DNA of 64,000 bases. Origin: an uncultured Planctomycetales bacterium. GTDB lineage: Bacteria; Planctomycetota; Planctomycetia; Isosphaerales; Isosphaeraceae. The notes under the pieces were generated by a model. It made no database searches, was not told the DNA's origin, and saw only the letters and a program-made list of their open reading frames with translations. Position 1 is the stretch's first letter. Each line of letters starts with the position of its first letter. The stretch spans positions 390 to 64,389 of the forward strand of contig CALCIB010000187.1 in the NCBI GenBank assembly GCA_937907525.1. Reading direction: 5' to 3'. Below are positions 14,681-40,792 of this stretch, piece after piece. The translations under genes and the position numbers were made by a program.

Positions 14681-14852
14681 GTCGATTCTCCCCATATCGT
14701 TCGGATCGCCTGGAAGACGTCGCCACTGTATCCGTCCGACGCCCCTCGCGAAATCCCCCGGCGGCCCCTGGACAATTTCAGGCGGACGCGCGTATAGTAA
14801 CCGGCCTGGAGAAAGAGACGACGGTCGGGAGGGAAGGGGAGGCGTTTCAGGG

Positions 14853-21389
<6,537 letters not shown>

Positions 21390-23547: not shown

Positions 23548-23871
23548 ATGATTGGCGACGGAGCCGCGACCAGGACGGTGACGACGACGGCCTCGACGGG
23601 GATCGACGTCGAACGGATCGGTCTCGACGACCGCCTCCGCGAACTCCTCGGCCTCCCGAGCGACGACCCGTCTCGGACTTGGGGAGACAGGGTCGCGGAG
23701 GCGATCGTCGCCGCCGCGGCCAGGGGCGACGCCCGCTCGTGGGGAGTCCTCTTCCGCCGCGCCGGCGCTGGCGCCGCGTCCGAGGCGGCCGGGACGGCCA
23801 TCGACGACGAGACCGCCCGCAGAATCCTGGAGGCCGCCCTTGGACGAGTCGACGATCAATCGCTTGATTAG
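23548..23871 (+). CDS. Putative terminase small subunit (107 aa)
   Basis: Size and position overlapping the large-terminase start; helical; no sequence motif recognised. Confidence 0.45.
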   Translation: MIGDGAATRTVTTTASTGIDVERIGLDDRLRELLGLPSDDPSRTWGDRVAEAIVAAAARGDARSWGVLFRRAGAGAASEAAGTAIDDETARRILEAALGRVDDQSLD

Positions 23872-25420
23872 GTCCGTGCGCGATCGGCGGCCCCGGACGT
23901 TGGACGAACTCCAGGCCTGGATCGAGGCCTTCGTCGGCGTCCGGATCCCGGCGCGGGCCGTCTGTCCCGGCCACTCCTCCCCGCTGGAGATGTTCGCCTC
24001 CCAGGTGCTGGATCGACCGTCTCTGGCGCTTTGGCACGGCCCGAGAGGGAGCGGCAAATCGTTTCTCTCGGCGCTCGACACCCACCTGGCGAGCCGCTTC
24101 AACCCGCGCCACGAAACCCACGTCCTGGGCGGGTCGCGGGCGCAGTCGGAGCAGATCTACCGCGCCCTCAAGGATCTGGTTCTCGAGGGAGCGGGGCCGC
24201 TCGGAAGCGACCGCGACTCGATCCGACGGCTTCTGAAGACGGAGGCGTCCTACGGCAACGGATCGCGGGTGGCGATCCTGTCGGCGAGCCCCACGAGCGT
24301 CCGCGGCCCCCACGTCGCCTCGCTGAAACTGGACGAGGTCGACGAGATCGACCCGGACATCCGCGAGTCGGCGATCGGCATGGCGATGGACCGCCGAGGA
24401 GTCCGGTCGAGCGTCCTGATGACCTCGACCTGGCATCGCCCGGCCGGCCCGATGGCGGATCTCGTCGACCAGGCGTGCGGGGGGGCCTTCCCGATCCACA
24501 CCTTTTGCGCCTTCGAGGTCCTGGAGCGCTGCCCGACCGAGCGGAGCGGCCCGAACCTGGAGAAGTGTCCGGACTGCCCGCTCATGGCCTGGTGCCACGA
24601 GGGCCGCGACGACGACCCTCTGGGCCGCCCCAAGGCCAAGCGAAGCAATGGACATTATTCGATCGACTCCCTGATTCAGAAGGTCCGGGGCGTCTCGCCG
24701 CGGGTCTTCGCCAGCGACTACCTGTGCCGCGGGCCGAAGGTCGACGGCGTCTGGTTCAAGGAGTTCGACGAGTCCCGGAACGTCTCCGAGGAGGCGGAGT
24801 TCGATCCGTCGCTGCCGGTCCACGTCGCGATCGACTCGGGAGTCTTCACGGGAGCCGTGGCGTTCCAGGTCCACCAAGGCTGGGAGTGGGCCGACCCACC
24901 GGAGCCGTCACGAGTCCACGTCTTCGCCGACTATCTGGCGGAGGGCCGCTCGGCCGAGACGTGCGCCCTCGAAATCCGGGAGTTTCTCGATCGGCTCTGC
25001 GGCTCCGCGAAGCGGTTCGTGTCCACCGACTCGGCCGGAGGGGCCAGGAATCCCGTCGGCCCGACGGTGATCTCGGAGTTTCAGAGATGCGGACTCGTCG
25101 GCGACACGGGTTTGCAAACCTGGCCCCGATATCCCGGATGCGTGATCGAGGGGCTGAACTTGATTGAAAGCCTGGTCCGGACGGCCGACGGCCGCCCCCG
25201 GCTGCTCATCCACCCCCGTTGCGCCCAACTCTCCGCGTCGCTCAAGAGCTACGCGAGGGCCCGCCGCGCGGGCCAGTGGATGGACTACCCCGCGGACCCG
25301 CAACACCCCTGGGAAGACCTCGTCGACGCGCTGCGGGGCGGGCTGGGCGTCGCGCTGCCCGAGGGGACGACCCCCGCGGCCCGCCCGCTCCGACGCGCCC
25401 GCGCCGACCGCGTGTTTTAA
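23840..25420 (+). CDS. Phage terminase large subunit
   Basis: Walker A HGPRGSGKS, Walker B LKLDEVDE, coupling motif MTST, RNase H-like nuclease residues (AIDSG, STDSAG, DLVDALR). TTG start uncertain. Confidence 0.88.
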   Translation: MDESTINRLIRSVRDRRPRTLDELQAWIEAFVGVRIPARAVCPGHSSPLEMFASQVLDRPSLALWHGPRGSGKSFLSALDTHLASRFNPRHETHVLGGSRAQSEQIYRALKDLVLEGAGPLGSDRDSIRRLLKTEASYGNGSRVAILSASPTSVRGPHVASLKLDEVDEIDPDIRESAIGMAMDRRGVRSSVLMTSTWHRPAGPMADLVDQACGGAFPIHTFCAFEVLERCPTERSGPNLEKCPDCPLMAWCHEGRDDDPLGRPKAKRSNGHYSIDSLIQKVRGVSPRVFASDYLCRGPKVDGVWFKEFDESRNVSEEAEFDPSLPVHVAIDSGVFTGAVAFQVHQGWEWADPPEPSRVHVFADYLAEGRSAETCALEIREFLDRLCGSAKRFVSTDSAGGARNPVGPTVISEFQRCGLVGDTGLQTWPRYPGCVIEGLNLIESLVRTADGRPRLLIHPRCAQLSASLKSYARARRAGQWMDYPADPQHPWEDLVDALRGGLGVALPEGTTPAARPLRRARADRVF

Positions 25421-25468: not shown

Positions 25469-27070
25469 ATGCTGAACTCGAATACGATCGGCGCGTCGGT
25501 CCATCCGACGTCAGGGGCGGCGATGCCTCGGATAGCCCTGCCGGACGGTCGGCGGTTGGACCGCCCTCATCCCGAATGGCTGGCGCACCATCTCCGCTGG
25601 CGATGGCTGCTCGACTCGTGGGAGGGCGGCGAGGCCTACCGCACCGCCGTCTACGGGTACGACATGCACGGGATGCCCGTGCGGAACCTGGTCCGTCATA
25701 AACGGGAGTACCCGTCGTCCACCGACGCCGGCGCTTATCCCTTGGGCGGGAGGCCGTTCGGCACCGATCCCGCCTATCAGGCGACGGACGACGACTACGA
25801 ACTGCGACGGGCCAGGACGCCGGTCCCGACCTTCGTCTCGGAAGCGGTCGAGGCCCATCTCGCCCGCATCTACAGCCGCGAGGTGCGCCGCGCCGGCCCC
25901 GAGTCGTTGACCTCGTGGTGGCGCGACGTCGACGGTCGGGGGGCTTCGATCGACGATTTCATGTCGAGTTCGGTCGCCCCGCTCCTCCTGGTGCTGGGCC
26001 AGCTCGATCTGATCGTCGATCGTCCGGCCGCCCCCGACGGCGAACCGGTGCGGACCCGCGCCGACGAGATCCGGCTGGGGCTCGACGCCTGCGCGGCCTC
26101 CTACGTTCTCCCGGAAAACATGGTCTGGTGGCGCCTGGACCGCGCCGGACGGTATCTCGAATGCCTCGTTCGAGAGGTCGACGACCGAGGCGGCGTCTCC
26201 TGGCGTCACTGGAACGAGAATATCTGGACGTTGTTCGATGACCGCGGCGAGAAGGTCCGCGGGCCCTTCGAACACGGATACGGCCGCGTCCCGATCATCC
26301 GAGTCTTCGATCGTCGACGGCCGCGCTGCCGGAACATCGGACTTCCCAGGTATGAAAGCATCGCTGAGATCCAGCGCGAGTTTTACAACCGCGACAGCGA
26401 GCTGATCCTCAGCGACACGACGCAGGCGCACCCGCTGCTGCAGGGTCCCGAGGACTACGTGAAGGCCGACGGGGCCGTGCCGATCGGGCCCAACTGGCTG
26501 CTCCCCAAGAAGAAGAACGCCCAAGGGGGGGCGACGACCTACGAGGGGTTCGACGTCATCCGGTTCCCCAAGGAAGGGGCGGACTCCCTGCGGATGAACA
26601 AGGCCGATCTGAGGGACGCCGCCGACCGCGCCGCGCTCTTGTTGAAGCCCGCCGGATCGGCGGGGACGAGCGGGTCGACCGTGGCCCAGAGCGGGATCTC
26701 GAAGCGGATCGACCAGGCGGCGGGCAACGACCTCTTGAGCAAGATCGCCGCGACGCTGGGCGGGATAGAGCGCCGTCTGGCCGATTTGGCGCTGGCCGTC
26801 ATGGGGGCCGATCCGACGGCCGAGGATCGCGAGGCGATCCGCGTGCAGTATCCGTCGTCCTTCGACCTATACACCGGGGAAGAGTTGGCTCGCGCGGTCG
26901 GTCAATTCCAGACCGTGCTGGGCGCCGCGGGCCACGCCCCCAAGACGGAGCGGGAGATGCTCGGCAAACTCGTCCGAGTGATGCTCCCGGGGCTGGACGA
27001 CTCGGACTACGGCGAATTCGACGTCGAGATCGAGACGTACCTCGGTCTCGACGCGGAGACTCGGGCTTGA
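25469..27070 (+). CDS. Phage portal protein, 533 aa
   Basis: Directly after TerL; portal size; HGYGRVPIIRV, YNRDSELILS, AQSGISKRID motifs resemble SPP1/DUF4055-type portals. Confidence 0.75.
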   Translation: MLNSNTIGASVHPTSGAAMPRIALPDGRRLDRPHPEWLAHHLRWRWLLDSWEGGEAYRTAVYGYDMHGMPVRNLVRHKREYPSSTDAGAYPLGGRPFGTDPAYQATDDDYELRRARTPVPTFVSEAVEAHLARIYSREVRRAGPESLTSWWRDVDGRGASIDDFMSSSVAPLLLVLGQLDLIVDRPAAPDGEPVRTRADEIRLGLDACAASYVLPENMVWWRLDRAGRYLECLVREVDDRGGVSWRHWNENIWTLFDDRGEKVRGPFEHGYGRVPIIRVFDRRRPRCRNIGLPRYESIAEIQREFYNRDSELILSDTTQAHPLLQGPEDYVKADGAVPIGPNWLLPKKKNAQGGATTYEGFDVIRFPKEGADSLRMNKADLRDAADRAALLLKPAGSAGTSGSTVAQSGISKRIDQAAGNDLLSKIAATLGGIERRLADLALAVMGADPTAEDREAIRVQYPSSFDLYTGEELARAVGQFQTVLGAAGHAPKTEREMLGKLVRVMLPGLDDSDYGEFDVEIETYLGLDAETRA

Positions 27071-27140: not shown

Positions 27141-27806
27141 GTGAACGATCAAGCGAGCGTCGACGTCGCTCCGGACGCGGCCGATCAGTCCGGCCCGTCG
27201 CGGGGCGAGGAGCGTCAGCGGTTGCGGGCCCTGGAGGCCCAACTGTCGGACGTCCGACGCCAGCAGGACGCGGCGTTGGAGATGAAGGATCAGGAGCGTC
27301 TGCGGGCCCTGGCCGAGAAGGGTCAGATCGAGGAGGCGCTTGAGCAGCAGCGCCGGACCTGGGAGCGGAAGCACGCCGAGGCGGTCTCCCGATACACGCT
27401 TTTGGAACAGCAGGTCTTCGGCGAGAGAAAATCGGCCGCGATCGCCGACGCCCTCCAGGGTCGGGCGTTCGTCGGCGAAACGTCGGAGCAGCGTTCGGCC
27501 GCCGCGGCGATGGTCCGTCGACTTCTCCAGGACGAGTTCGAGACGGTTCGAGAGGCGTCGGGCGCGCTCGTGGTCCGCGAGCGGTCCAGCGGTCGTCCGG
27601 CCGGAGAGGCCCTCCGCGAGCGCCTCGACTCGCCGCAGTTCGCGATCTTCTTCGCGGCGACGTCGCGTGGGGGGGCGGGCGGCGACGCCTCGCGACCGTA
27701 CGCCGCCCCGAGAGGGGCCCAGCCGGGATCGCTCGAGGCGATCGTCGACCAGTGGAGAGACCGGCAAAACCAGTACCAGTCGTTCGGGCTGCACCCGCTG
27801 GTGTGA
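27141..27806 (+). CDS. Capsid scaffolding protein, 221 aa
   Basis: Coiled-coil E/Q/R-rich sequence between portal and capsid; C-terminal FFAATSRGGAGG linker. Confidence 0.7.
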   Translation: MNDQASVDVAPDAADQSGPSRGEERQRLRALEAQLSDVRRQQDAALEMKDQERLRALAEKGQIEEALEQQRRTWERKHAEAVSRYTLLEQQVFGERKSAAIADALQGRAFVGETSEQRSAAAAMVRRLLQDEFETVREASGALVVRERSSGRPAGEALRERLDSPQFAIFFAATSRGGAGGDASRPYAAPRGAQPGSLEAIVDQWRDRQNQYQSFGLHPLV

Positions 27807-27874: not shown

Positions 27875-29011
27875 ATGCCCTCGTATGAGAACAGCCCGCT
27901 GACCCAGTTCAACGCCTTCAGCGCCGGCGTCCTGCCCAACGACGTCTTCGGCGTGGCGATCAACTGGTTCGTCAACCGGACCCCGCTGACGTCGCGGCTG
28001 CCGAAGCTGCCGGTCGGATCGCCCCACTTCCTGATCGTCAACGACAACTATCGACCTCGCTCGGTGGCGTTGAACGCAGCCCTGACGGCCGCCGCGACGT
28101 CGCTGACCGCCGCGGACGCCTCGGTGTTCGACTCGGGAGACGTCATCCAGGTCGAGCAGGAGTACCTGCTGGTGACGGCCGTGGATCCATCGACGAACAC
28201 CGTGACGGTGGCCCGAGGCTACGCGGGCACGACGGCGGCCGCGCACGCCAACGCCCAGCCCATCTTCCTGGTGAGCAACACGCGGACCGGCGCCGAGACG
28301 AACGTCTCCGGCCTCAGCCGGATCCCCCAGGCGACCACTCAGTATTGCCAGACGGTGCAGCACGCCTACCAGGTCGGCGGGGCGCTGCAGGCCGACGCCA
28401 ACTACGGCTCGGCCTACGCGACTCCGCTCGACCGCGACCGGATGCTGGCGATGCAGCACGTCATGGACGACTTCGAGTCGGCGGTGTATTACGGCAAGGG
28501 GGTCGGCCTGTCCAGCCCGTCGAGCCGGCCGCTGATGAAGGGGATTCAGTCGCTCCTGTCGACCAACAACGTCACTTCGCCGACGAACGCGGCGGCGTAC
28601 AAGCCGAGCGACCTGATCCGCGACACCATCCAGGCGTGCTTCAACGGCGGCGGCAACCCCAGCCTGCTTTTGGTCAGCACGGACTTCCTGTCGGCCTTCG
28701 CCGTCTGGGGTCACGCCGCGATGCGGGTCAACGCCGGGAGCAACGTCTTCGGCGTGCCGATCGATCTGTTCGAGGCCCCGTTCCTTTCCGGCATCTCCAT
28801 CGTGCCGGCGCCGCTGCTGCGCCCGGGCACGGCGGTCTGCCTCTCGGCCAGCGAGGCACGGGTGCGGTTGAAGCGGTCGATGATCGACAAGCCGCGCGGC
28901 AGCCGCGGCGACGCCTTCGAGGGCGACATCATCATGGAGGGCGCCGTCGAGATCGACAACGAGGCGCATCACGCCTGGGTCTCCGGGATCTCGGCCTTCA
29001 GCGCCGCCTGA
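27875..29011 (+). CDS. Major capsid protein (HK97 fold, DUF5309/SU10-like), 378 aa
   Basis: TQYCQTVQHAYQVGG, MDDFESAVYYG, RPLMKGIQSLL and RGDAFEGDIIMEGAVEIDNE resemble the DUF5309 pattern; follows the scaffold gene. Confidence 0.8.
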   Translation: MPSYENSPLTQFNAFSAGVLPNDVFGVAINWFVNRTPLTSRLPKLPVGSPHFLIVNDNYRPRSVALNAALTAAATSLTAADASVFDSGDVIQVEQEYLLVTAVDPSTNTVTVARGYAGTTAAAHANAQPIFLVSNTRTGAETNVSGLSRIPQATTQYCQTVQHAYQVGGALQADANYGSAYATPLDRDRMLAMQHVMDDFESAVYYGKGVGLSSPSSRPLMKGIQSLLSTNNVTSPTNAAAYKPSDLIRDTIQACFNGGGNPSLLLVSTDFLSAFAVWGHAAMRVNAGSNVFGVPIDLFEAPFLSGISIVPAPLLRPGTAVCLSASEARVRLKRSMIDKPRGSRGDAFEGDIIMEGAVEIDNEAHHAWVSGISAFSAA

Positions 29012-29035
29012 GCCTCGGTCAAGAACCCGCCGGAG

Positions 29036-29068
29036 CCGCCCCGCGCGCGACGCGGGGCGGTCATTTCC
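29036..29068 (+). terminator. Probable attenuating hairpin after capsid gene
   Basis: CCGCCCCGCG (29036-45) / CGCGGGGCGG (29051-60) 10-bp stem followed by TCATTTCC; the U-tract is short. Confidence 0.5.
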
Positions 29069-29083
29069 ACGACGCGAGTCGAC

Positions 29084-29452
29084 ATGAGCACAACTCGTTC
29101 CTTCACGTTCCCCGGCTTGTGGCCTTATATCGAACGCGCGGCCGAGGGGCGGCGCCTTCCGTTCCTGGGCCGCGGGCGTGAGCTGTGGCATTACAAGCAG
29201 GTCCAGGACGCGCTGGGCCAACTCCCCGGCCTCGCCGCGAGCGATCGGCGCGAGTCGTTGGCCCACGTCGCGGCGGTGCGGGACTCGCTCGCCGCGACGC
29301 TCGACGGGATCGACCTGGCCGTGCTGGAGACGGTCCAGGGCCTGGGCGGCGGCGAGTCTCGGGATCCCGCGTGCGGCGCCTCCGAGCCGGCGGAGTCGCA
29401 ACCGCGTCGCGGCCTCGCGGCGCGACGGCGGCGCGACTCCCAAAACGAATAA
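29084..29452 (+). CDS. Hypothetical protein (122 aa)
   Basis: In-operon ORF after capsid gene; no motif recognised. Confidence 0.6.
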   Translation: MSTTRSFTFPGLWPYIERAAEGRRLPFLGRGRELWHYKQVQDALGQLPGLAASDRRESLAHVAAVRDSLAATLDGIDLAVLETVQGLGGGESRDPACGASEPAESQPRRGLAARRRRDSQNE

Positions 29453-29478
29453 ACACCCTTCAGCCTGCGAGCCATTCC

Positions 29479-30156
29479 ATGAGTCAGTCAGACCGGCTCA
29501 CGATCCTCTACGCCGACGACGAGGACGTCGCGGTCCACGCCCCAGGCGACTTCGCGGTGCTGGCGCCGGCCTGGCAGAAGATCGCCCAGGGCTCCGACGG
29601 CGTTTTCGGGTCCGGCCCTAGCTGGACCCTTGCGTCGGCGACGTCGGACTTCGAGGCGGCCGGGGCCCGACCGGGCCATGTGATCCAATTGCGAAAACCC
29701 ACGTCGGTCTTCAAAGGCGCGGGCGAACTCTTCGCCGTCGAGGGGGCCGTCGGGGGCTCGCTGACGATCCGCCGCGTCGGCATGCCCGCGGGCGCCGGGG
29801 CTCCGCCCGCGCCGGCCTCGGGCCTCTCCGGCGTGGAGTTCGTCATCGCCACCCTGTCGCCGCAGATCGAGGAGGCGAGCTTCGATCTGAACCGTCTGTT
29901 CGCCATCGATCCACTCGCGCCTGGTCGAACGCCCTCGGATCTCCACGACGTTCGGGAACTCCGCCGCGCCTGCGTCCTCGGCGTGCTCGTCCGCCGCTAT
30001 GCGGCCGAGTCGCGCGGCTCCGACGGAGACTTCGCGCAAAAACTCCGACAGGCCGAAGCCGAGTTGGCCGAGGTCCTGGCGCGCCTGGAAGTGCGCTGGG
30101 GGTCGGCCGTCGACCGGTCGTCGTCCTCGATCTTCTCCACACGAATCGTGAGGTGA
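29479..30156 (+). CDS. Putative head-tail adaptor/head completion protein (225 aa)
   Basis: Position after capsid; helical C-terminus (ELRRACVLGVLVRRY...FAQKLRQAEAELAEVL). Confidence 0.45.
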   Translation: MSQSDRLTILYADDEDVAVHAPGDFAVLAPAWQKIAQGSDGVFGSGPSWTLASATSDFEAAGARPGHVIQLRKPTSVFKGAGELFAVEGAVGGSLTIRRVGMPAGAGAPPAPASGLSGVEFVIATLSPQIEEASFDLNRLFAIDPLAPGRTPSDLHDVRELRRACVLGVLVRRYAAESRGSDGDFAQKLRQAEAELAEVLARLEVRWGSAVDRSSSSIFSTRIVR

Positions 30157-30163
30157 TTTCACC

Positions 30164-30619
30164 ATGTCTTTCCTGGTTTCCCGCGAGGGCGACGCGCGCC
30201 TCTTGACCGAACTCCTCGGCGGCGCCGCGCCCGAGGACTGGCAGCTCGGCCTGTACAACTCGGCCGTCACGCCTTCCGAGACCGACACGGCCGCCACCTA
30301 CGCCGCGCACGAGGCTGCTTTCGCCGGCTACGCGCGCAAGACGCTGACTCGTTCGGTGTCGGACTCGACCTGGAACGCGCCGGTGTTGCAGGCCCCCTCC
30401 GGATCCCCGCCCTGGTCCTCCCGCGGACAGGTCGCCCACTCGCAATACGGTTCGGCCCCGACGAGCTGGACGGTCGGCGCGACCGGCGACACGGTTTACG
30501 GCTATTTCATCGTCGGCGCCGTGAGCGGCGCGCTCATCCTGGCCGAGCAGTTCGCGGATCCGCGGACGCTGCACTCGGGCGACACGCTGTCCATCACGCC
30601 GGTCTTCGAGGTCGCCTGA
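30164..30619 (+). CDS. Phage minor structural/tail-fibre-associated beta protein (151 aa)
   Basis: WQLGLYNS...GYARKTL...W...VYGYFIV...RTLHSGDTLSIT pattern typical of phage minor tail proteins (recalled, not searched). Confidence 0.55.
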   Translation: MSFLVSREGDARLLTELLGGAAPEDWQLGLYNSAVTPSETDTAATYAAHEAAFAGYARKTLTRSVSDSTWNAPVLQAPSGSPPWSSRGQVAHSQYGSAPTSWTVGATGDTVYGYFIVGAVSGALILAEQFADPRTLHSGDTLSITPVFEVA

Positions 30620-30732
30620 CGATTTCACGACCGTGAAGCGCCTCGGCGAGCCGTCGGCCGCCATGCGGGCCGGCGCGGCGGCCCCATCCATCGACCGCCT
30701 CCGCGTCTTCTCAACGGCCCGAGGGTATCAAC

Positions 30733-32244
30733 GTGAATAAATACTATGTTTCCGTCGACCGCGGGAGCGACTCCAACGACGGGCTCTCGCCCGCGACGCC
30801 GTGGAAGACGATCGGCAAGGCGATCGGACCGTCGCCGGGCGTCTCGCTCGGGACCGACGGCGCGACGGTTTATATAGAGCCCGGCGCCTACTACGAATCC
30901 GTGACGCTCGCCCTGAACCCGTCGGACGTCGCGCCGCTCGCGATCGTGGGCGACTGCGACGGCGCGGGTTTCCTGGCCGGCGGGCGGACGACGCCGACCG
31001 TCGGCGTCGTGGAGTGGTCCGCATGGGTCGACGACGCGACCCCGCGAACCGACCCCTGCCTCTCGGGCGGCTCCGGATCCCACGTCGCGCTTCGGCGACT
31101 CAAGATGTACGGCGGCATCGCCAATCCGGGGTGCGTGCAAGTCACGACCGGGAAGTCCTGGTCGATCGTCGACTCGGCGTTCATTTGCAGTCATTCCGTT
31201 CCCTCCGCGCTCGTCACGTTTGGGGCGTCGGCGTCGGGAGGCGCCACCGCCGGTCTCGGTTTGCTCGTCGAACGCTGTTCGTTTCTGGCGGACGCCGCCG
31301 TGGCGGGCGTACTCGTCGTCGCCGCCGAGGCGGCCGCCGAGTATTCGTTGGACTCCGTGATCCGCGACTGCCGCTTCGTGGGCGGCTACGGTTTTCGGAT
31401 GACTCACGTTTCGACCGGACTTGGCGCGCTCGGGACGGGGGTGACGGTCGAGCACTGCACGAGTTTCGCCGGGTATCGCGGAGCCATGATCTACGAAGGC
31501 GTCGCGACGCCGACGTTGACGACGCCCGTGTCGATTCGCGGTTGCTTTTTCCGTGCCGCCATCACCATGACCGCCGGGAACGCGACGCACGTCACCGAGG
31601 ATTGGAACGTGCTGGTGGGCGGAAATCCCGCCAACGTGCCCGCCGGTCCCAACTCCATCCGCGCCCGACGCGCGGTTTTCGATTTCGACGACGGGCTGCT
31701 GGTCGGGACGCCCCTGCGTCCGATGGGGACGCCCACCGCCGGGTCGCTCCTGGGGGGGTTCGTGGGGAGCGGCGCGTTCCCGCCGACCGACCTGACGGGG
31801 CGGGCCCGCCCGGAGGGATCGGGCGCGGCTCGTCCCGCCGCTGGCGCGTTGGAACGGCACGACACCGGCGAAGCGAACGCGCAATACGCCGACGCGGGCT
31901 CGAGCGCGTGTCTGGCTTTGACGGGTCCGAGTTCGTTGGAACGGCCGATCCTGGTCGACGCGACCGCGACGACGATCGGCGTCAAGGTCCGTTGGGACGG
32001 GAACCACGGCGACGCGAACAAGCCGAGGGCGGTCCTGCTGGCGAACCCGGAGATCGGGATCGCGAGCGACCAATCCGTCGAGCCGGCGACGTCCGGCGGT
32101 TCGGGATCGACGCCCAACGCCTACGAGGCGCTGACGTTCGCGCCGGTGACGCCGACGAAGGCCGGCGCCTTGATGCTCCGGCTGGAGTCGCGGTCGGCGG
32201 CTGGGAACGGCGTCGCGTATTTCGATTCGATCACCCTTTCTTGA
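30733..32244 (+). CDS. Beta-helix (pectin lyase-like) spike-type protein, 503 aa
   Basis: YYVSVDRGSDSNDGLSPATPWKTIGKA and TVYIEPGAYYE N-terminus, then I/V-xx-C-x-F coil repeats. Confidence 0.7.
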   Translation: MNKYYVSVDRGSDSNDGLSPATPWKTIGKAIGPSPGVSLGTDGATVYIEPGAYYESVTLALNPSDVAPLAIVGDCDGAGFLAGGRTTPTVGVVEWSAWVDDATPRTDPCLSGGSGSHVALRRLKMYGGIANPGCVQVTTGKSWSIVDSAFICSHSVPSALVTFGASASGGATAGLGLLVERCSFLADAAVAGVLVVAAEAAAEYSLDSVIRDCRFVGGYGFRMTHVSTGLGALGTGVTVEHCTSFAGYRGAMIYEGVATPTLTTPVSIRGCFFRAAITMTAGNATHVTEDWNVLVGGNPANVPAGPNSIRARRAVFDFDDGLLVGTPLRPMGTPTAGSLLGGFVGSGAFPPTDLTGRARPEGSGAARPAAGALERHDTGEANAQYADAGSSACLALTGPSSLERPILVDATATTIGVKVRWDGNHGDANKPRAVLLANPEIGIASDQSVEPATSGGSGSTPNAYEALTFAPVTPTKAGALMLRLESRSAAGNGVAYFDSITLS

Positions 32245-32253
32245 TGGACCGTC

Positions 32254-33894
32254 ATGCCCCCACGACCCTTTGAACACTGGTATCGCGGCGTATCGGTCGA
32301 AGCGGCCGCCCGTACCTCGACCTCGGCGCCGTGGGGGATTCGGGGCGCGCTTGTCGCGCCCGTGATCCGGGGGGGATTCGGCCAGGTCGCCGCGGCGGTC
32401 GGCGGCCTTCGGGCGGGCGGCGGAGGCGAGTTCGAGGCTTGCGTCTCCGCTGCCGCGCCCACGAGGGTGACGGTGGGCGGAACGGCCCACACGAGCGCGG
32501 ACGTCCGCGTCGACGGCCCCGCTTGCGCGGGGGGGGCCGGATTCGCGGCCGCAGCCGACGCACGGCTTGCTTCGGATCCGGCGCCGGGGGGCGGTTGGTC
32601 GACGGGGGGGCGATGGCGAGCCGCGGCGGAGGCCGCCGAAGGCTTCTCGGGGGGGGTCTCGGTCCACCCGGGAGCGATCGCCGCCCATGGTTTCGACTGT
32701 TCGGGATCGGGAGGATCGGCGATGGGCGGCGTCGGCCCGAACGCCGCGAGTCCGCCCGGTCGATCGTTCAAGTATTGGCGACGCGGCGAGGCTGTCGTCG
32801 ACGCCGGCCCTCGCGAGGGAGGCTTCGCGCACGGTTACCGAGGTTGGTTCGGAGCTCCCTCGTCGGGTCGGATAGGAAGAGTCGACGGTGTTGATTCGAC
32901 GGGCGCGGGCCTTCGCGTCGGCGCCGGCGCAGCGATTTGGATCGACCGCGGCGGCGCCGGCGTCGCGGTGGCCGAACTGGGAGGCGCGGGCGGAGCCGGG
33001 CGACAGGACCACGTCGCCGGTTCGGGTGGCGTGGCGCGGCCGGGCGGGGCGTCGAGGATCGAACGGGGCGCGGACTTTGACGCGATCTCAGTCGTCGGGA
33101 CGTATTCGGCCGCCTCCCCGCGCGTCGCCATCGAAGTCGAGCCCTCGTCGACGACTCGGTTCGGGGCGGCCGCCCGAGTGGACGTCGAGCACGGCCTCGG
33201 TTGGTTCGGGGGCGACGGCCGGGCCTTCGGCGGAGGCGCCGACGCGATCGCCACGTGCGAGCCCGCTGCGGGCGGGAGCCTCGCCGTCGGCGGCGGTCAT
33301 ATCGATCGTCTCGCCCTCGTCTACAGGATTTATTCCAACGGCGGACTGGGCGGCGCGATCGATTACGGGTCGCCTATCGCCGAAACGTCGGGACTGGAAT
33401 GGACGAGCGAGCCGCTGCCGCCCGGGTCGTCATTCCGTTTCGGGGTAAGAACGTATTCACCCGTCGATGATTGTCAAGACGAGAACCTCGACGCGTCGGT
33501 CGCGCTGGTCGTCGACGCGCGAGGACGAGACGCGACCGGCGTACCCCGCCCGCCCGTCGGCCTCCGCGCCCTCGATCAAGGCGGCGGTCGCGTCCGCCTC
33601 GAATGGACGACGGTCGGCCCGTCCAGATTCGAGGCGGCCGCGACCCACTTCAACGCATATCTCGGCCGAGACGTCGTCACGGACTTTTCCTCGCCGATCG
33701 TCGTCCCGGCGCCGGCGTCGCGCGGAGGCGTCGTCGCGACAGAACTTCGCGACCTGCCGACGGGCCGATCCTTCGCCGTGATCGTCCGCGCGGCGAACGA
33801 GTTCGGCGAGGACGACAACGTCGCCGCCGTTCGATTCACCGTCGATCTCTTCCCGCCGTCGCGGGTCGACGACCTCGCCGCGTCCGTCGCCTGA
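32254..33894 (+). CDS. Gly/Ala-rich protein with two C-terminal FN3-like domains, 546 aa
   Basis: Low-complexity N-terminal two-thirds; PPVGLRALDQGGGRVRLEW, FAVIVRAANEFGED, PPSRVDDL. Confidence 0.6.
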   Translation: MPPRPFEHWYRGVSVEAAARTSTSAPWGIRGALVAPVIRGGFGQVAAAVGGLRAGGGGEFEACVSAAAPTRVTVGGTAHTSADVRVDGPACAGGAGFAAAADARLASDPAPGGGWSTGGRWRAAAEAAEGFSGGVSVHPGAIAAHGFDCSGSGGSAMGGVGPNAASPPGRSFKYWRRGEAVVDAGPREGGFAHGYRGWFGAPSSGRIGRVDGVDSTGAGLRVGAGAAIWIDRGGAGVAVAELGGAGGAGRQDHVAGSGGVARPGGASRIERGADFDAISVVGTYSAASPRVAIEVEPSSTTRFGAAARVDVEHGLGWFGGDGRAFGGGADAIATCEPAAGGSLAVGGGHIDRLALVYRIYSNGGLGGAIDYGSPIAETSGLEWTSEPLPPGSSFRFGVRTYSPVDDCQDENLDASVALVVDARGRDATGVPRPPVGLRALDQGGGRVRLEWTTVGPSRFEAAATHFNAYLGRDVVTDFSSPIVVPAPASRGGVVATELRDLPTGRSFAVIVRAANEFGEDDNVAAVRFTVDLFPPSRVDDLAASVA

Positions 33895-33935
33895 CGCGAC
33901 CCAACCCATTCGCGCAAGGTTCTTCGGAGGGCCGT

Positions 33936-36900
33936 ATGGCCATCACGCTCACTGGTTATTGCGGGCTCAAGTCGGTCAACCGGGCAATGGCCGGCGGCGG
34001 CGAACGCGTCACGTTGGCGATTTGCGCGCGGACGAACGGCTGGCGCTTCTCGCGCTGGCAGAACTTGCTCGCGTTCGGTTCGTACGCGTCGATTCGCTCG
34101 TATCAGCCGTACGGAAGTCGCCCGTCGGTCACGTTGCAGGCGTCGGAACGGTTCGTCGGCGACGCGACCACCTACGAGACGTCGAAGGCGGGCGGCGCGA
34201 TCGGCGAGGCATACCAGATCACGTTGGTCTACGACAAGGACGACCCGAACCGGCAGTTCCTCGCCGTCAACGGAGTCAAGGTCGCGACGCCGGTCCACGC
34301 CGCGGCCCTGTCGTCGTGCGCGTTCATCGACGTCGGCGACCCCGTCGGCATCGGCAACGCCGACGGTCTCGGGGTCACGTTTCAGGACGCCGTGGTCGTC
34401 GACGGCCACGCCGCGAGCGACGAGGAGGTCAAGGCCCTCGCCGGCGGCTCGGCCGGGGCGGCCGACTTCGTGACGTCCCTCGCGTCCGTCCCAGGCGTGA
34501 CGGCGTCGTACTACTCGCTCGCCGGCGAAGCCGGGACCGTCCCCCAGGCCGGCGACCCCGGCCTGCTGCCGACGATCGGAGGCGGCCCCGGCTACGGCCT
34601 CGTCGTCGCCCGCTGGGGCGCCGACCACGCCGCCGACGTCGCCTACGCCGAGCCGATGGTCTATGACTGGCGCGACGAGATCGTTCGAGCGTACGTCGGA
34701 TCGTCCGGCAAGACCGTCACCGTCGCCGTCGCGAGCAAGGCCGGCGGAGCCCCGCGCTTCCCGTCGACCTCGCGGCTGAACGCGGCCCCGACGATCCGCA
34801 TCGACGGCGGGGCCCCGATCACGCTGGGAACGGCCCCGCAAGCCGGGTGCTTCACGGGCGGGACCATGGACGCCGTGTACCTGGCGCTGCCGACCGGGAC
34901 GTACGTGTCCCCCGGACAAACCGTCTCCATGGACGTTCCGGAGGGTTGGTTTCCCGACGACTTCGGCGTCGCGCAGGCGCAGTCCGGGGTCGTCGTCGCC
35001 AACTACGCGGGGAAAAGCGTCACCGACCAGCTCTGGCCCGACCCCAAGACGATGCGGCTCGGCGTCAACCACGAGAGCACCCAGGACTACTGGGCGGCGT
35101 TGTGCTCCGTCCGGAACCTGGCCATGTTACTCGGACGGAACGCGAGGGACCGTTGGGAGGACGGCACGGTCAAGGGCAACCAGACCGTGCTGCTCCTGAC
35201 AACGGGGGCGTCCAACAAGCTGGACTTGCCCGGCATCCCCGGCCGCGCGGGGCGTTGGGTCTTCCGCTGGGACGACTACGATCCCGCGAACCCCGTGTCC
35301 ATCACCCCCATGTCGTACTCGAAGTACGGGTGGCGGGAGATACCCGGGTACGCCAACCCCGGCGACGACCAGGGGCGGGGAAAGGTCAAGGTCTGGGAGC
35401 TGGACCTCGGCAGGAAGTGGCCGTTCACCCTGGCGGCGGCCGTGGACGCCACGGCGACCACGATCCCGTTCCTGGAGAAGGCCGACTGGCAGTTGGTAAG
35501 CGGGAACTCCTGCTACCTGACGATCGGCGACGAGCGGATCCTCATCGGGGCTTACGACGTCGCGGCGAAGGCGTTCACCGGCTGCACGCGCGGCTGGAAC
35601 GGCACGACGGCGGCGGCGCACGCCGCCGCCGCGTCCGGGATCGCGCAGTACCCGGCGAAGTATGGCGAGGTCCACGTGGCGTTCGGCAGCCCGAACGCCG
35701 CCAACATGCGGTATTCCAATCTGGCCATCTACCCGCCGGGGTTTTACGACATTCCGGAGACGCCGACGCCGCTCGTCGTGCCGCCGCCCGACCCCATGGA
35801 CGTCGCCCCGGACCTCCAGGCTTACTTCGCCAAGGGCGTGGGCGCGCTGCGGTACATGACGGATACGCCGCTCTACCCCTGGCCCGGCGATTTCGAGTAC
35901 CCGGAGCAAATCGCGGCGCCGGACCAGGTCCACTACGGCACGCCGCGGATCACCGAGCGGTACGTCATCAAGGGGGTCAAGCCGATCGCCTGGGAGGACA
36001 TGCCCTACTTCTATTCGGCGACGTCGTGGCTCACGACCGCGGAGACGTACCCGGCGACCCTGTCCGCGCCGATCACGACCGCCCCCGCCGCCGGGACCGT
36101 CGAGACGGTGACGATCGCGAGCGACCCGGCGGCGCCGATCCTGCTCGGGCAATCCCTGTTCGCGGGCGACGAGGTCATGCGGGTGGTCGGCTTGCCGGTC
36201 TCTGGCGACGACCACCAGGTCGAGCGGGGGTCGGTCGGCACGACGCCGGCGACGCACCCGGCGGGCGCGATCGCCGTCGGCTACCGGATTCCGACCGCGG
36301 ATCCCGCGACGTACGTGGCGGCCTCCTCCAAGCGGGCGCTCCACTGTTACGAGGTGGTCTTCGACGAGGAGCAGTCGGCGCCGATCTCGTTCGGCCGCAA
36401 CATGAACGGCGTCTGGTCGAAGGTGGTCCCCGAGAACCGCACGGCCCAGCGGACGTTCACGCTGGCCGCGGCCCTGGACGCGACGTCCCTGGACGTCTTC
36501 CTGACCGCCGCCGATCCGGAGGATTGGGACGTCGTCGCGCGGGGCCTGACCCTGACCGTCGAGGGCGAGACGCTGACGGTGCTCTCCGTCGACGTCGGCG
36601 CCGGCAAGGTCACGGTCAAATCGCGGCCGACGGGCGCCGCCGCCCACGCGTCCGGGACCGCCGTGACGTCGTCGTCGTCCCGGATCCTGCTGCAAAGCGC
36701 GGACGGCGCGAAGCGCGCGTACAACGCCCTGTCCTCGTTCAACGCGCGCCTGTTCCCGATCGGGGCCAAGCGGGCGATCATCATCGTCGACGACTCCGAA
36801 TCCAACTCGTACCTCGTCCAGTCGGCCTCGCCGCCGTTCGACCAGGACGTCGACGCCACGAGCAACACGGCGCAATATCCGGGCTTCGAGCGGCCGTTCG

Positions 36901-38060
36901 CGCACATGGCCAAGGAGACGAACGACAGCCCGGGGACCTGGCACTGGCTGAACATCCCGTTCCGGGCCTGCGACGCGGCCGTTTACGAGATCGCCAAGGC
37001 CGTGCGCGACAATCTCGAGCCCGGCCGCAAGGTCATTTTCGAGTTGAGCAACGAGCTCTGGAACAACGTCTCGCTTTTCACGTCGACGCAGACCAACGCG
37101 GGGATCGCCACGACGTGCGGGGCGGCGGACACGCGCGACCCGTTCGTGCTGCGGTCGAAGACGGCGTTCGACGTCGCCAAGCGCTGCTTCGCCGAGGTCG
37201 GCCGCGAGGGCGAACTCGAGTTGGCGATCTGCTGGCAGACGACGGACGACGTCCTGGCCCGTTGCCGGGACCTGGGCGTCGAGCCCGACGCCATCGGCTG
37301 CGCCCCGTACTTCTCCGGACCGAAAACGGGGACGGTCGCGGACGACTACGTGGCCACGTTCGCCGCCGTCGATGACGACGCCGTATGCGACCTGCTCGCG
37401 TTCATGTACATGCACCAGACGCAGTCCGGAAGTCTGCGCTACATAGGCGATGCGCTTCGGACGGCCCGGACGAAGCACCTGGCGGCGACGGGCGCGCGAC
37501 CCAAGACGTACCTCTACGAGGGCGGTCTGGAGGCGATCATCGCGGCCGGCACGCCGAACGACCCCGACCCCGAGCGCCGGCGGACGCGAGACATCATCTT
37601 CAACCCGAACTTCTACTTCACCGAGGCGGCCCACTACGCGATGGTCCAGCGCGCCATGGAGGCCGACCTGTTCATGGTGTTCGTGATGTCCCAGGTGCTG
37701 TCGGACTACGCGCCCAACTCCACTTTCTACTGGGCGATGCTGTGGGGTCCGACGATGAAGCCGGGCCGAGGCGACGGGCGGGACGGCGGCGTCGTCAACA
37801 AGTCCTACGCCTATGCCGGGCTCACGGACAGGGTTCGGGGCGGCGGAGACGCCTACCGCGAGTCGGTCCGCTTCCAAGCGTGGCAGGACTACCAGGCCGC
37901 CTGGCGGGGAGAGAGCGTCCTAGACCCCGATCCAACCGACCCTGGCGGTTCCGACCCGGAGCCGGATCCAGGTCCGGGTTCGGGCTCGAACGGCCCGCCG
38001 ATTCGCGCCAAGCCCCGCCCTTTCGTCCCGCTCCGCGGATCTCGACGCGGATTCAGGTGA
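33936..38060 (+). CDS. Large multidomain putative virion accessory protein, 1374 aa
   Basis: GGAGG SD; LamG-like N-terminus (tentative), three internal beta repeats, C-terminal WHWLNIP...VIFELSNELWN region resembling glycoside-hydrolase-like domains, acidic Pro-rich linker. Confidence 0.75.
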   Translation: MAITLTGYCGLKSVNRAMAGGGERVTLAICARTNGWRFSRWQNLLAFGSYASIRSYQPYGSRPSVTLQASERFVGDATTYETSKAGGAIGEAYQITLVYDKDDPNRQFLAVNGVKVATPVHAAALSSCAFIDVGDPVGIGNADGLGVTFQDAVVVDGHAASDEEVKALAGGSAGAADFVTSLASVPGVTASYYSLAGEAGTVPQAGDPGLLPTIGGGPGYGLVVARWGADHAADVAYAEPMVYDWRDEIVRAYVGSSGKTVTVAVASKAGGAPRFPSTSRLNAAPTIRIDGGAPITLGTAPQAGCFTGGTMDAVYLALPTGTYVSPGQTVSMDVPEGWFPDDFGVAQAQSGVVVANYAGKSVTDQLWPDPKTMRLGVNHESTQDYWAALCSVRNLAMLLGRNARDRWEDGTVKGNQTVLLLTTGASNKLDLPGIPGRAGRWVFRWDDYDPANPVSITPMSYSKYGWREIPGYANPGDDQGRGKVKVWELDLGRKWPFTLAAAVDATATTIPFLEKADWQLVSGNSCYLTIGDERILIGAYDVAAKAFTGCTRGWNGTTAAAHAAAASGIAQYPAKYGEVHVAFGSPNAANMRYSNLAIYPPGFYDIPETPTPLVVPPPDPMDVAPDLQAYFAKGVGALRYMTDTPLYPWPGDFEYPEQIAAPDQVHYGTPRITERYVIKGVKPIAWEDMPYFYSATSWLTTAETYPATLSAPITTAPAAGTVETVTIASDPAAPILLGQSLFAGDEVMRVVGLPVSGDDHQVERGSVGTTPATHPAGAIAVGYRIPTADPATYVAASSKRALHCYEVVFDEEQSAPISFGRNMNGVWSKVVPENRTAQRTFTLAAALDATSLDVFLTAADPEDWDVVARGLTLTVEGETLTVLSVDVGAGKVTVKSRPTGAAAHASGTAVTSSSSRILLQSADGAKRAYNALSSFNARLFPIGAKRAIIIVDDSESNSYLVQSASPPFDQDVDATSNTAQYPGFERPFAHMAKETNDSPGTWHWLNIPFRACDAAVYEIAKAVRDNLEPGRKVIFELSNELWNNVSLFTSTQTNAGIATTCGAADTRDPFVLRSKTAFDVAKRCFAEVGREGELELAICWQTTDDVLARCRDLGVEPDAIGCAPYFSGPKTGTVADDYVATFAAVDDDAVCDLLAFMYMHQTQSGSLRYIGDALRTARTKHLAATGARPKTYLYEGGLEAIIAAGTPNDPDPERRRTRDIIFNPNFYFTEAAHYAMVQRAMEADLFMVFVMSQVLSDYAPNSTFYWAMLWGPTMKPGRGDGRDGGVVNKSYAYAGLTDRVRGGGDAYRESVRFQAWQDYQAAWRGESVLDPDPTDPGGSDPEPDPGPGSGSNGPPIRAKPRPFVPLRGSRRGFR

Positions 38061-38634: not shown

Positions 38635-39051
38635 ATGGCCGCGACCAAGCTCCAGTCGAACTGGACGGCTGTTTCTTTCAACTCGGCCCCGATCTCTCGG
38701 GTGACGCAAGTGAGCTTCACCCAGGGGGGGACCCTTACGACCTACGCGGCCGACGGCGACCATTTCCCCACGGTCATCGTCAATACGATGAGCAAGCCCA
38801 AGGCGACCGTCGCCAGCGGCGACGTCGCGGCCCTCATGGCGATCGCGCCCGGGGTCTCTGGGACCTTCAGCGCGACCCACAAGGACGCCAAGGGGGAGGC
38901 CGGCGGAGACATCCTCTACGTCCTGGCCAACGCGGTGGCCGAAAACTCCGAGACCTCGGGGGCCCACGGCGAGTTCGGGACCGCGACCCTCACCCTCATG
39001 GCCTACTCCTCCGACGGAACCACCAACCCGCTCAGCTTCACCAGGGCTTGA
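38635..39051 (+). CDS. Putative major tail tube protein (138 aa)
   Basis: AGGAGG SD; small T/S/G/A-rich beta protein upstream of a frameshifting chaperone gene. Confidence 0.6.
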   Translation: MAATKLQSNWTAVSFNSAPISRVTQVSFTQGGTLTTYAADGDHFPTVIVNTMSKPKATVASGDVAALMAIAPGVSGTFSATHKDAKGEAGGDILYVLANAVAENSETSGAHGEFGTATLTLMAYSSDGTTNPLSFTRA

Positions 39052-39108
39052 TCGCTCGCCGCCCTGGGACCCCGACCACCTGGCTACGCGACGAGTTCCC
39101 GCCCCCAT

Positions 39109-39414
39109 ATGGAAGCCATGCCAATCGACGCGTTGATCGTTCCCGAGTCGTGGAAGAGCGGCGGCACGCAACTGGACCGGATCGACTCGATCCTCCGCGT
39201 GGCGGAACCCCTGCTGGGGGTGGACCGCTCGCGCGGGCAAAGGGCCTACATCCGCCGCCAACCGGGAGGCCGCCTCTTCATCACGACGGACCCCCGCGAC
39301 ACGATCTCCTTTCCGATCGGACACCCGCGCGAGGGTCGTCCCCGCTACACCTGGACCGCGGCCCCCGACGGCTCGGAACGCGGATCCCTGGTCGAGGAGG
39401 CTCGCGATGCTTGA
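39109..39414 (+). CDS. Hypothetical protein (101 aa)
   Basis: In-operon ORF whose stop overlaps the next start. Confidence 0.55.
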   Translation: MEAMPIDALIVPESWKSGGTQLDRIDSILRVAEPLLGVDRSRGQRAYIRRQPGGRLFITTDPRDTISFPIGHPREGRPRYTWTAAPDGSERGSLVEEARDA

Positions 39415-39820
39415 CGAGCGGGCGCTCCGCCGAACGAAGTTCTCCCCGGGGCCGGAGGTGACCCTCGGGGACGGAGGGAAATGGTCGCTCCCGACGCCGA
39501 GCCTGCGCCTGTTCCCCCTCAGGGGCGAGGACGGCCGAATCACGGTCGGCGGCGGCCCCAGCTTCGGCGCCGAATATGAGGCGCTGATGGACGATCTGGC
39601 CGATTGCGACCCCGAGGACGCGACCGGTCGTTTGACCATTCAGTTCCGGATGGCGGCCATGCTGCTGACGCGCAACTACGACCTTGCCGATCGCGACCTC
39701 CGTGAACTACTCGTCATCGACGCCGAGGATCCCGAGTGCCGCGAGCGCTGGCGGGAAATCAACCGGGTCATGACGGGCCGCGCCCCAAAACGTTTAGCCG
39801 ATGGCTCCGCTGCACCCTGA
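39407..39820 (+). CDS. Tail assembly chaperone (gpG-like), 137 aa
   Basis: GAGGAGG SD; position after tube gene; slippery heptamer near the 3' end. Confidence 0.65.
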   Translation: MLDERALRRTKFSPGPEVTLGDGGKWSLPTPSLRLFPLRGEDGRITVGGGPSFGAEYEALMDDLADCDPEDATGRLTIQFRMAAMLLTRNYDLADRDLRELLVIDAEDPECRERWREINRVMTGRAPKRLADGSAAP

Positions 39821-39972
39821 TCGCGAACGGGGTCGCCCAGGACCTGCCCTGGGAGGACGCCATCGGCGTCTCGGAAATGCTGGTGGCCCTGGGTCGAGCC
39901 GTCCCTCCCTCGCGATGGGTGGACGGCCAGCAAGCCAGGGCCCGGGAAGCCGCCCTCGAAGCCCTCTTCTGA
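39784..39972 (+). other. -1 programmed frameshift site (C CCA AAA, 39784-39790) and gpGT-like extension frame
   Basis: Heptamer is in the correct X XXY YYZ phase in the 39407 frame (GCC CCA AAA); the -1 frame stays open to TGA 39970-39972. Confidence 0.7.
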
Positions 39973-39997
39973 CCTGACCGACAGCGAGATTCCAATC

Positions 39998-40792
39998 ATG
40001 GGCCTCGACGAGTTTCTCATCCCTCAAGAGTCCTCACCGGCGACGGACCCAGGGCCGCTCGGCGATCTTGACGAAGTCCTCCTGGCGCCGCCCATGGGAC
40101 TCGACGCCCCGGAAGAGCCGGCGGGGTCGGGGATCGCCGCTCCTTTGAAAACCGCTCTGATCGAGTCGCCGCCCACGAACGACGGACGCGAGGCCGCGAT
40201 GCCAAGCCGCGCCTCGGAGTCGGCCCCCTCGTTGGCGGACGTGATCGTCGCCGCGCCTTCCACGGACGAGGAGCGCGTGGGAACGGTCAAACCCGCCGGG
40301 CCGGAGTCGATCCGCCTTGGCGATCCGAAGCCCCGCGACGCGCGACCGTCCCCCCCGGCCCTCGAGACCTCGGGAAAGTCATGGGAGTTCCTCGCGACGG
40401 CCTGGGATTCCGCTCCTCCTCCCTCCAGCGGGGACGTCGGCCGGATCGATGACGAATTCGTCTCGACGTCGCCCTTGACTCGGGTCGACTGGGGCGCGAT
40501 CGCACCGGCGAACTCCATCTCGACCATTCCAGGGCGTCGGACGGAGGCCTCTCCCTCCCGTTCCATGGCTTCCATCGCTCGTTGGGACGACGGCTTCTCG
40601 GCGCCGACGGACTTCGGGAAGCCCCTGGACGGCCCGGTCGACGGCCCCGATTTCGAGAACGACCTCGACGGGCTCGGAGAGCGACTGTCACGGATCGTGG
40701 ATCGTCTGGAACGAACCGTGGAGCGATTCGCCCCCCCGTCGACCCCGCTCGGCGCGCGGCCCCGGCCGTTCCGCGGCCGGATCGACGGCTGA
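39998..40792 (+). CDS. Pro/Ser-rich protein in the tape-measure position (264 aa)
   Basis: Follows chaperone; acidic Pro-rich body with C-terminal amphipathic helix LGERLSRIVDRLERTVERF. Confidence 0.55.
   Translation: MGLDEFLIPQESSPATDPGPLGDLDEVLLAPPMGLDAPEEPAGSGIAAPLKTALIESPPTNDGREAAMPSRASESAPSLADVIVAAPSTDEERVGTVKPAGPESIRLGDPKPRDARPSPPALETSGKSWEFLATAWDSAPPPSSGDVGRIDDEFVSTSPLTRVDWGAIAPANSISTIPGRRTEASPSRSMASIARWDDGFSAPTDFGKPLDGPVDGPDFENDLDGLGERLSRIVDRLERTVERFAPPSTPLGARPRPFRGRIDG

Follow-up and report, generated by a model that had tools for sequence, protein, structure and literature searches.

Four copies of one module in a phage-type gene block

The 64,000-nucleotide (nt) stretch analysed here, referred to as the window, comprises positions 390 to 64,389 of contig CALCIB010000187.1 from the assembly GCA_937907525.1 of an uncultured Planctomycetales bacterium. 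The window has a GC content of ~70% throughout and carries, on the plus strand from 23840 to ~45 kb, a phage-type structural gene block within a chromosome of the Isosphaeraceae (Planctomycetota). This block encodes a major capsid protein (MCP) of the HK97 fold and, further downstream, a virion protein of 1374 amino acids (aa). One module of ~70 aa is found once in the capsid protein and three times in the 1374-aa protein. The features concerned are as follows (HMM, hidden Markov model; E, expectation value):

27875-29011, plus strand: MCP, 378 aa, HK97 fold of the SU10/VP1 type (Pfam SU10_MCP PF17236)
28067-28276, plus strand: capsid copy of the module, MCP residues 65-134 (HMM)
33936-38060, plus strand: 1374-aa virion protein, probable host-recognition protein (frame open from 33471; gene callers use the ATG at 33936)
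35424-35639, plus strand: module copy 1, residues 497-568 of the 1374-aa protein (HMM; phrog_7578, E 1e-8)
36072-36278, plus strand: module copy 2, residues 713-781 of the 1374-aa protein (HMM; phrog_1101, E 8e-7)
36456-36665, plus strand: module copy 3, residues 841-910 of the 1374-aa protein (HMM)
36933-37805, plus strand: C-terminal domain of the 1374-aa protein (alignment of 8 divergent homologues)

The four copies are homologous to each other. Smith-Waterman scores were compared with those of 1000 composition-preserving shuffles, resulting in z 9.5 for the capsid copy against copy 1, z 7.8 for the capsid copy against copy 3 and z 11.7 for copy 1 against copy 3. Copy 2 is the most divergent and scores weakly against the other three (z 1.0-4.8, with z 1.0 against copy 3). 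An HMM based on 729 instances of the module in unrelated proteins, termed the foreign HMM below, recovers all four places with E 2.4e-24 (capsid), 1.1e-14 (copy 1), 7.5e-10 (copy 2) and 2.2e-5 (copy 3), the next best match in the six frames of the window having E 0.09. With our own model the respective values are 4e-29, 3e-22, 4e-19 and 1e-12, and the six-frame HMM scan of the 64 kb yields exactly four copies and no fifth. The initial annotation, which was made from the sequence alone, had proposed these four segments and had named a low-complexity correction as the test of their similarity. The segments and the peptides quoted from them lie where they had been placed, and the similarity persists against the composition-preserving shuffles in three pairs (z 7.8-11.7), with the foreign HMM finding all four. 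For copy 2, the start given there (36057) takes in a short N-terminal strand.

Roughly, the family signature reads G-D-x-I-x-I-x-x-E-x-M-x-V-T...L-T-V-x-R-G-x-x-G-T-x-A-x-x-H-x-x-G. Within the window, the pattern G-D-x-[IVL]-x-[IVL]-x(1,2)-E...V...[TV]-x-R-G-x-x-G-T-x-A-x-x-H is present in the capsid copy and in copies 1 and 2, which likewise all match positions 555-634 of phrog_1101. Copy 3 lacks the 'RG..GT' turn and keeps the Glu and the His; it has weak PHROG matches only, the best being phrog_7578 (E 0.02).

Modelled alone from a 24-sequence module alignment, the capsid copy is predicted by AlphaFold2 as an all-beta domain (predicted local distance difference test, pLDDT, 98; predicted template modelling score 0.85), and the model shows the ~70-aa segment as an autonomous small beta-barrel domain. 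A Foldseek search of the PDB with this module returned the VP1 capsid (9in6; template modelling (TM) score 0.89, root-mean-square deviation (rmsd) 1.7 Å, 29% identity) and the baseplate hub gp53 of Pseudomonas phage JBD30 (8rk3; TM 0.83, rmsd 1.8 Å, 30% identity). Looser matches are other small closed barrels, namely the N-terminal domain of F1-ATPase, the B domain of pyruvate kinase and small domains of the tailspike depolymerases AP22 gp54, P560 and K1 lyase. Sequence profiles match 9in6 (E 2e-7), 8rk3 (E 8e-6) and the central tail protein of phage Chi (8vjh, E 5e-3). A match to the lectin BOA (E 0.15) was taken as chance. No model in the Pfam-A copy searched covers the module, the only matches being sub-threshold summed ones to the small barrels MJ0548_C, PTSIIA_gutA, SH3_15 and EFP_N, and the NCBIfam copy searched gave no match.

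When 1.84 billion representative proteins were searched with a profile, at least 15,607 matched at E<=1e-3, counted as protein clusters at 50% identity and to be read as a lower bound of the family, and 2,073 at E<=1e-10. Single proteins carry up to 34 module copies in chains of up to ~8,000 residues. Among 62 of the best family matches, most belong to PHROG tail-fibre, tail-protein and virion structural families, and partner domains in the family comprise Tad/TadE, RTX repeats, Kelch, TIG, Invasin_D3, Peptidase_S74, Rcc01698_C and K1-lyase_Rider. The viral structure database BFVD contains the same fold in tail fibres, in an MCP from a metagenome and in sheath and neck proteins of cyanophages. 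Not all module-rich proteins are viral. Some are cellular: in four of the 62, a Tad/TadE-like domain of pilus assembly stands at the start, ahead of many modules, and others carry RTX, Kelch, dockerin or VWA domains. Taken together, these searches show the module to be a very large and promiscuous add-on family, which occurs in tail fibres and in hub, sheath, neck and capsid proteins as well as in bacterial surface proteins.

The relation between the copies was assessed by a nearest-neighbour test, in which each copy of the window received a score against each of 804 modules drawn from 148 foreign proteins. Against these instances, which were chosen with a capsid-weighted profile that inflates the capsid copy's similarity to them, the capsid copy has a median score of 81 and a maximum of 163; its scores against copies 1, 2 and 3 are 73, 50 and 70, which corresponds to ranks 506, 748 and 553 of 804. 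A direct exchange between the capsid protein and the 1374-aa protein is unsupported by these ranks. For copies 1 and 3 the mutual ranks are 16 and 3 of 804, and both have the lead-in FTLAAA-DAT; by sequence, they probably go back to an internal duplication older than the split between the homologues. Copy 2 is close to neither in the ranks. The initial annotation had attributed the repeats to domain duplication, which is partly supported, probably applying to copies 1 and 3 but not extending to copy 2. On the DNA level, likeness between copies is limited to patches of 14-34 nt over conserved motifs, and there is therefore nothing recent among them; both recent duplication and gene conversion between copies are ruled out on this ground. 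As judged from these comparisons, the capsid copy and the copies of the 1374-aa protein are separate members of the family that neither form a matched set nor have recently been exchanged.

The module as an insertion in the capsid protein

The MCP matches Pfam SU10_MCP (PF17236) with E 5e-42 and 144.8 bits against a cut-off of 24.1. The match covers profile positions 8-291 of 292, and the 292-position model is spread over 362 MCP residues. Structure prediction of the capsid protein, which the initial annotation had suggested as a check, yielded an HK97-type AlphaFold2 model for the whole chain. This model has its best PDB match in 9in6_M, the VP1 capsid (E 1e-17); the HK97, SU10, Pa223 and D3 capsids come next, down to E 1e-7.

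Two related capsid proteins lack the module: the MCP of MW202462 (313 aa), the nearest annotated phage MCP, and SU10 gp9 (352 aa). When residues 64-133 are removed from the window's MCP, it becomes collinear with both over the N-terminal ~85 residues without a gap, and the deletion junction '...NDNYRPRS / SNTRTGAE...' aligns at 'WQTDALASVD / GNNAHVEG' of SU10. The insertion was placed by this collinearity because hhalign gave no significant match between SU10 gp9 and the profile of the MCP family and the text of the SU10 paper gives no residue boundaries. In the AlphaFold2 model of the MCP, the module follows the N-arm helix (29-35) and a short strand (51-55) and precedes the strands that lead up to the spine helix (23 residues, 184-206). 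The interval between the N-arm and the spine helix is the E-loop of the HK97 fold. We infer from this order that the insertion site is the E-loop and that the barrel would be exposed on the outer capsid surface, one per subunit.

Across 52 MCP homologues, variability is two-fold higher in the module than elsewhere in the protein, with an entropy of 1.68 bits compared with 0.80 bits; the module's mean identity to the window's MCP is 50% compared with 75% in the remainder. The higher variability fits an exposed add-on. The Pfam span, the collinearity after deletion, the module's own fold and the VP1 precedent agree that the capsid segment is an insertion, as the initial annotation had assumed, and not a part of the HK97 core.

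The 1374-aa protein and the surrounding genes

The genes around those listed above are:

14586-21389: 2267-aa UvrA-like open reading frame (ORF) with UvrA and ABC ATPase domains
23840-25420, plus strand: large terminase (phrog_2)
25469-27070, plus strand: portal (PHROG; phrog_145 and phrog_206 matched across the portal and scaffold genes)
27141-27806, plus strand: scaffold (PHROG; phrog_145 and phrog_206, as for the portal)
30164-30619: 151-aa protein (weak PF23140 and PHROG matches)
30733-32244, plus strand: 503-aa cassette gene (PHROG tail-protein and tail-fibre N-terminal matches)
32254-33894, plus strand: 546-aa ORF, a cassette gene (390 aa as called by gene callers)
38635-40792: genes of 138, 101, 137 and 264 aa, without library recognition
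46092-47087: GtrB-like family-2 glycosyltransferase (phrog_841, E 2e-92)

The 1374-aa protein is the last of three consecutive genes forming a cassette (30733-38060) that is 30-57% identical or absent in related Isosphaeraceae loci, the flanking genes being 58-94% identical. In one of these loci (L002) the next two genes past the cassette are 78% and 92% identical. The first two cassette genes (503 and 546 aa) are 34-57% identical or absent in related loci, compared with 58-92% identity for the genes flanking them. For the 1374-aa protein itself, which was called on 6 contigs, the database holds two homologues only (49% and 41% identical, both with all three modules), and six related loci have a homologous large gene with 1-3 detectable modules in the same slot. 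The identity of these syntenic homologues is 30-45%, that of the MCP in the same loci 75-94%. Host-recognition genes typically stand out in this way, as a hypervariable island within an otherwise conserved virion module. Because its divergence is far faster than that of its neighbours, the 1374-aa protein is most likely a host-recognition (adhesion) protein, of the tail or of the head.

Outside the modules, the 1374-aa protein has no match in Pfam, PHROG or NCBIfam. These three libraries also returned no signature of a lambda gpJ or T5 pb3 hub, nor of Phage-tail_3 or tip attachment protein J; in the PDB, the likeness to the J-like proteins 8rk3 and 8vjh is confined to the module. A sequence pattern reminiscent of lectin/LamG domains, without a database match, is seen in the N-terminal ~170 residues. 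In the C-terminal ~300 residues, two glutamates are invariant among 8 homologues, whose identity falls as low as 23%: Glu1040 in ELSNELWN (nt 37053-37055), with the wider context ELS[N/D/C]E[L/P]WN, and Glu1195 in YEGG (nt 37518-37520). Glycoside hydrolases of clan GH-A, which fold as a TIM barrel, (beta/alpha)8, have an acid/base Glu in the motif N-E-x and a nucleophile Glu ~100-160 residues later. The two invariant residues recall these motifs, and the C-terminal domain may possibly be glycosidase-like. No glycoside hydrolase model of Pfam matched the domain at E up to 5-10, with each homologue searched as well, and no such structure matched in the PDB. A protein database search with the C-terminal alignment gave no match and also missed the query's own protein, which makes this null uninformative.

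The N-terminus of the 503-aa protein reads NKYYVS.DRGSD.NDGLS...PWKTI, and its first ~60 residues alone match PHROG tail-protein and tail-fibre families; we take this type of N-terminus to be typical of right-handed beta-helix (pectate-lyase-like) proteins. Long spurious ORFs are common in all frames here owing to the high GC content. For the 546-aa ORF, gene callers start at ~32722, and its first ~155 residues are Gly/Ala/Arg-rich and may be untranslated.

Downstream of the MCP, ~17 more genes belong to the structural block, which reaches to roughly 45 kb and is flanked by the 2267-aa UvrA-like gene upstream and by the GtrB-like glycosyltransferase and a sigma factor downstream. The order of the MCP gene and the terminase, portal and scaffold genes upstream of it is kept in 12 related loci. 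The MCP has more than 590 close homologues, of which the named ones come from chromosomes of Isosphaeraceae (Aquisphaera, Paludisphaera), and the element is therefore considered a planctomycete prophage or an element derived from a phage. The 64-kb window contains no tRNA gene.

Several observations concern the neighbouring genes. The 151-aa protein has a sub-threshold match (E 0.009) to PF23140, the podophage GP4 fibre I protein gp80, as well as matches to phrog_8123 and phrog_240 ('head protein'), and is 67-87% conserved in related loci. The sizes of the 138-, 101-, 137- and 264-aa genes, together with an 8-nt overlap, resemble a tail tube, a chaperone pair and a short tape measure. The downstream 138-aa and 706-aa proteins, for which matches were sought to decide the tail type, matched nothing in phage genomes or the PDB. 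By sequence, the MCP type and the weakly GP4 gp80-like neighbour point to a VP1/GP4/SU10-like podophage, and the run of small genes could be read as tube, chaperones and tape measure. The 2267-aa ORF consists of two UvrA-like units, with the UvrA interaction and DNA-binding domains present twice in addition to ABC ATPase domains, and a 58% identical stretch likewise lies upstream of the phage block in L002. The GtrB-like gene directly follows the structural genes. In temperate phages, a GtrB-type gene often serves surface-polysaccharide (serotype) conversion.

Interpretation and comparison with known systems

In our view it is likely that the four copies represent a promiscuous barrel, used once in the MCP and three times in the middle of the 1374-aa protein, as separate members of one family, with the large protein acting in host recognition. 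Each capsid subunit would display one barrel on the outer surface via the E-loop. There it would probably act as a built-in decoration or cement domain that makes extra contacts across capsomers, and it may possibly offer a weak glycan-adhesion surface. In the 1374-aa protein, where copies 1 and 3 would have arisen by an old internal duplication, the barrels would probably serve as rigid spacer or adhesion units between the N-terminal lectin-like region and the C-terminal domain with its two invariant glutamates. We posit the cement and spacer roles because of the analogy with domain VI of JBD30 gp53 and with MCP insertion domains that are discussed as substitutes for cement proteins.

Several points weigh against this interpretation. 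The model of the complete MCP is of mediocre quality (pLDDT 66), the strands on either side of the module being predicted with low confidence, and the assignment to the E-loop draws on sequence order and collinearity. The background of the nearest-neighbour test favours the capsid copy's foreign relatives, as mentioned above. The 1374-aa gene sits between the head genes and a run of small genes without an assigned role. Its flanking domains found no Pfam match on five sub-regions, no PDB match with single sequences or an 8-sequence profile, and no match in a tblastn search of 50,697 phage genomes.

The copies are rich in A, T, G and V, and copy 2 against copy 3 alone is not significant, as might be expected if the similarity were a compositional artefact of the Ala/Thr/Gly-rich translation of 70% GC DNA. 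The composition-keeping shuffles (z 7.8-11.7 for three pairs), the foreign HMM, which finds these four places alone in six frames of 64 kb, and the fold prediction (pLDDT 98, solved-structure matches at rmsd <2 Å) lead us to reject this explanation, the probability of which we regard as negligible. A shared module might instead signal a functional pairing, in which the 1374-aa protein would be a head fibre or capsid decoration matched to the capsid protrusion and might, for instance, dock barrel to barrel. The position of its gene between the head genes and the structural genes without assigned role would suit such a fibre, as would the weak 'head protein' and GP4 fibre I matches of the neighbour at 30164-30619, and every related locus with enough flank has both an MCP module and a module-bearing large protein. 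However, with the module present in at least 15,607 clusters, mostly of tail-fibre type, its sharing among virion proteins is expected by chance. The capsid copy is not specially similar to the copies of the large protein (506th, 748th and 553rd of 804), the homologues of that protein have between 1 and 3 detectable modules, and its evolution resembles that of a receptor-binding protein, in contrast to the conserved MCP core. We consider the pairing very unlikely. The initial annotation had combined a capsid protrusion with a matching decoration or adhesion protein: the insertion that would form the protrusion is borne out and has a precedent in VP1, the matching is not supported by the family size and the ranks, and adhesion is suggested by the fast divergence within a conserved gene order.

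A further possibility is that the module is chiefly carbohydrate-binding, which would make the whole capsid surface adhesive, in the manner of Ig-like decoration proteins, and let the large protein grip a host polysaccharide. Partner domains of the adhesin or depolymerase type (Invasin_D3, TIG, Peptidase_S74, K1-lyase_Rider), the similar small barrels on the tailspike depolymerases and the hypervariable surface positions of the capsid module are in line with this idea. Against it, no member of the family is known to have a ligand, the sole lectin match (BOA) is at chance level, and the conserved Glu, Arg-Gly, Gly-Thr and His may be purely structural, with VP1 lacking the His. Moreover, the corresponding JBD30 domain is described as an internal baseplate brace (PMC11445458). 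We therefore hold a lectin-like module to be a tentative and rather doubtful alternative. That the capsid barrel and those of the 1374-aa protein, as members of a very large uncatalogued domain family (15,607 clusters or more, with as many as 34 copies in tandem), share one job, be it binding of the same host glycan or head-fibre docking, appears unlikely to us.

Returning to the interpretation of independent family members, the accessory-domain repeat is real but ordinary, given the VP1 precedent. What is new is the case of a capsid with a built-in barrel in Planctomycetota, whereas the same arrangement is already known from the solved VP1 capsid. The finding opens no new mechanism. It extends the VP1-type barrel-bearing capsid to the prophages of Planctomycetota, which are almost unstudied, and provides a checkable case of one phage using a mobile accessory domain in its head and in another virion protein. 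Its practical value lies in annotation: the domain, with more than 15,000 clusters and at least 3 solved phage structures, is without a Pfam or NCBIfam model, which leaves thousands of giant surface proteins and tail-fibre-like proteins labelled 'hypothetical'. The module alignments and the 729-instance HMM could seed a family model.

Ig-like, FN3 and BIG2 domains are promiscuous accessory beta domains of ~70-100 aa, which occur singly or in tandem in capsid, tail and fibre proteins and have been proposed to act as spacers or weak adhesins. The module described here differs from them in being a closed barrel and not an Ig sandwich, in having its own sequence signature and in being without a model in Pfam-A or NCBIfam. 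Other insertion domains of HK97-fold MCPs are the I-domain of P22, located in the A domain, and the insertion domain of T4 gp23/gp24. Like these and the insertion domains of the cyanophage Mic1, Pam1 and Pam3 MCPs, the module is an extra folded domain built into the MCP, which would be exposed on the shell and probably add stabilising contacts in place of separate cement proteins; they differ from it in fold and site, and no homology was seen here. For the cyanophages, the insertion domains have been discussed as substitutes for cement proteins (PMC12002296).

Domain VI of JBD30 gp53 resembles the module as a small six-stranded beta-barrel that shares the motif G-D...E...V...RG..T..A.H, and it resembles the copies of the 1374-aa protein in being embedded in a large multidomain virion protein. 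In JBD30, however, the protein is a lambda-J-like hub, and the single copy is braced between fibronectin-like domains and described as an internal brace of the baseplate (PMC11445458), whereas the 1374-aa protein has three copies and no hub or J homology. The closest counterpart of the window's MCP is gp7 of VP1, a podophage of the gamma-proteobacterium Vibrio cholerae, the structure of which is PDB 9IN6 (Pang et al., Structure 2024, as cited in PMC11945409). The host of the element described here is a planctomycete; the two proteins are only 22% identical overall, and in the VP1 module one loop is longer and the His conserved elsewhere is missing. Both are SU10-type MCPs of the HK97 fold whose chains carry this beta-barrel at the same position, and their alignment is continuous through core and module, with residues 38-259 corresponding to VP1 40-271 and the module at 65-134 to VP1 74-144 (family profile E 1e-12).

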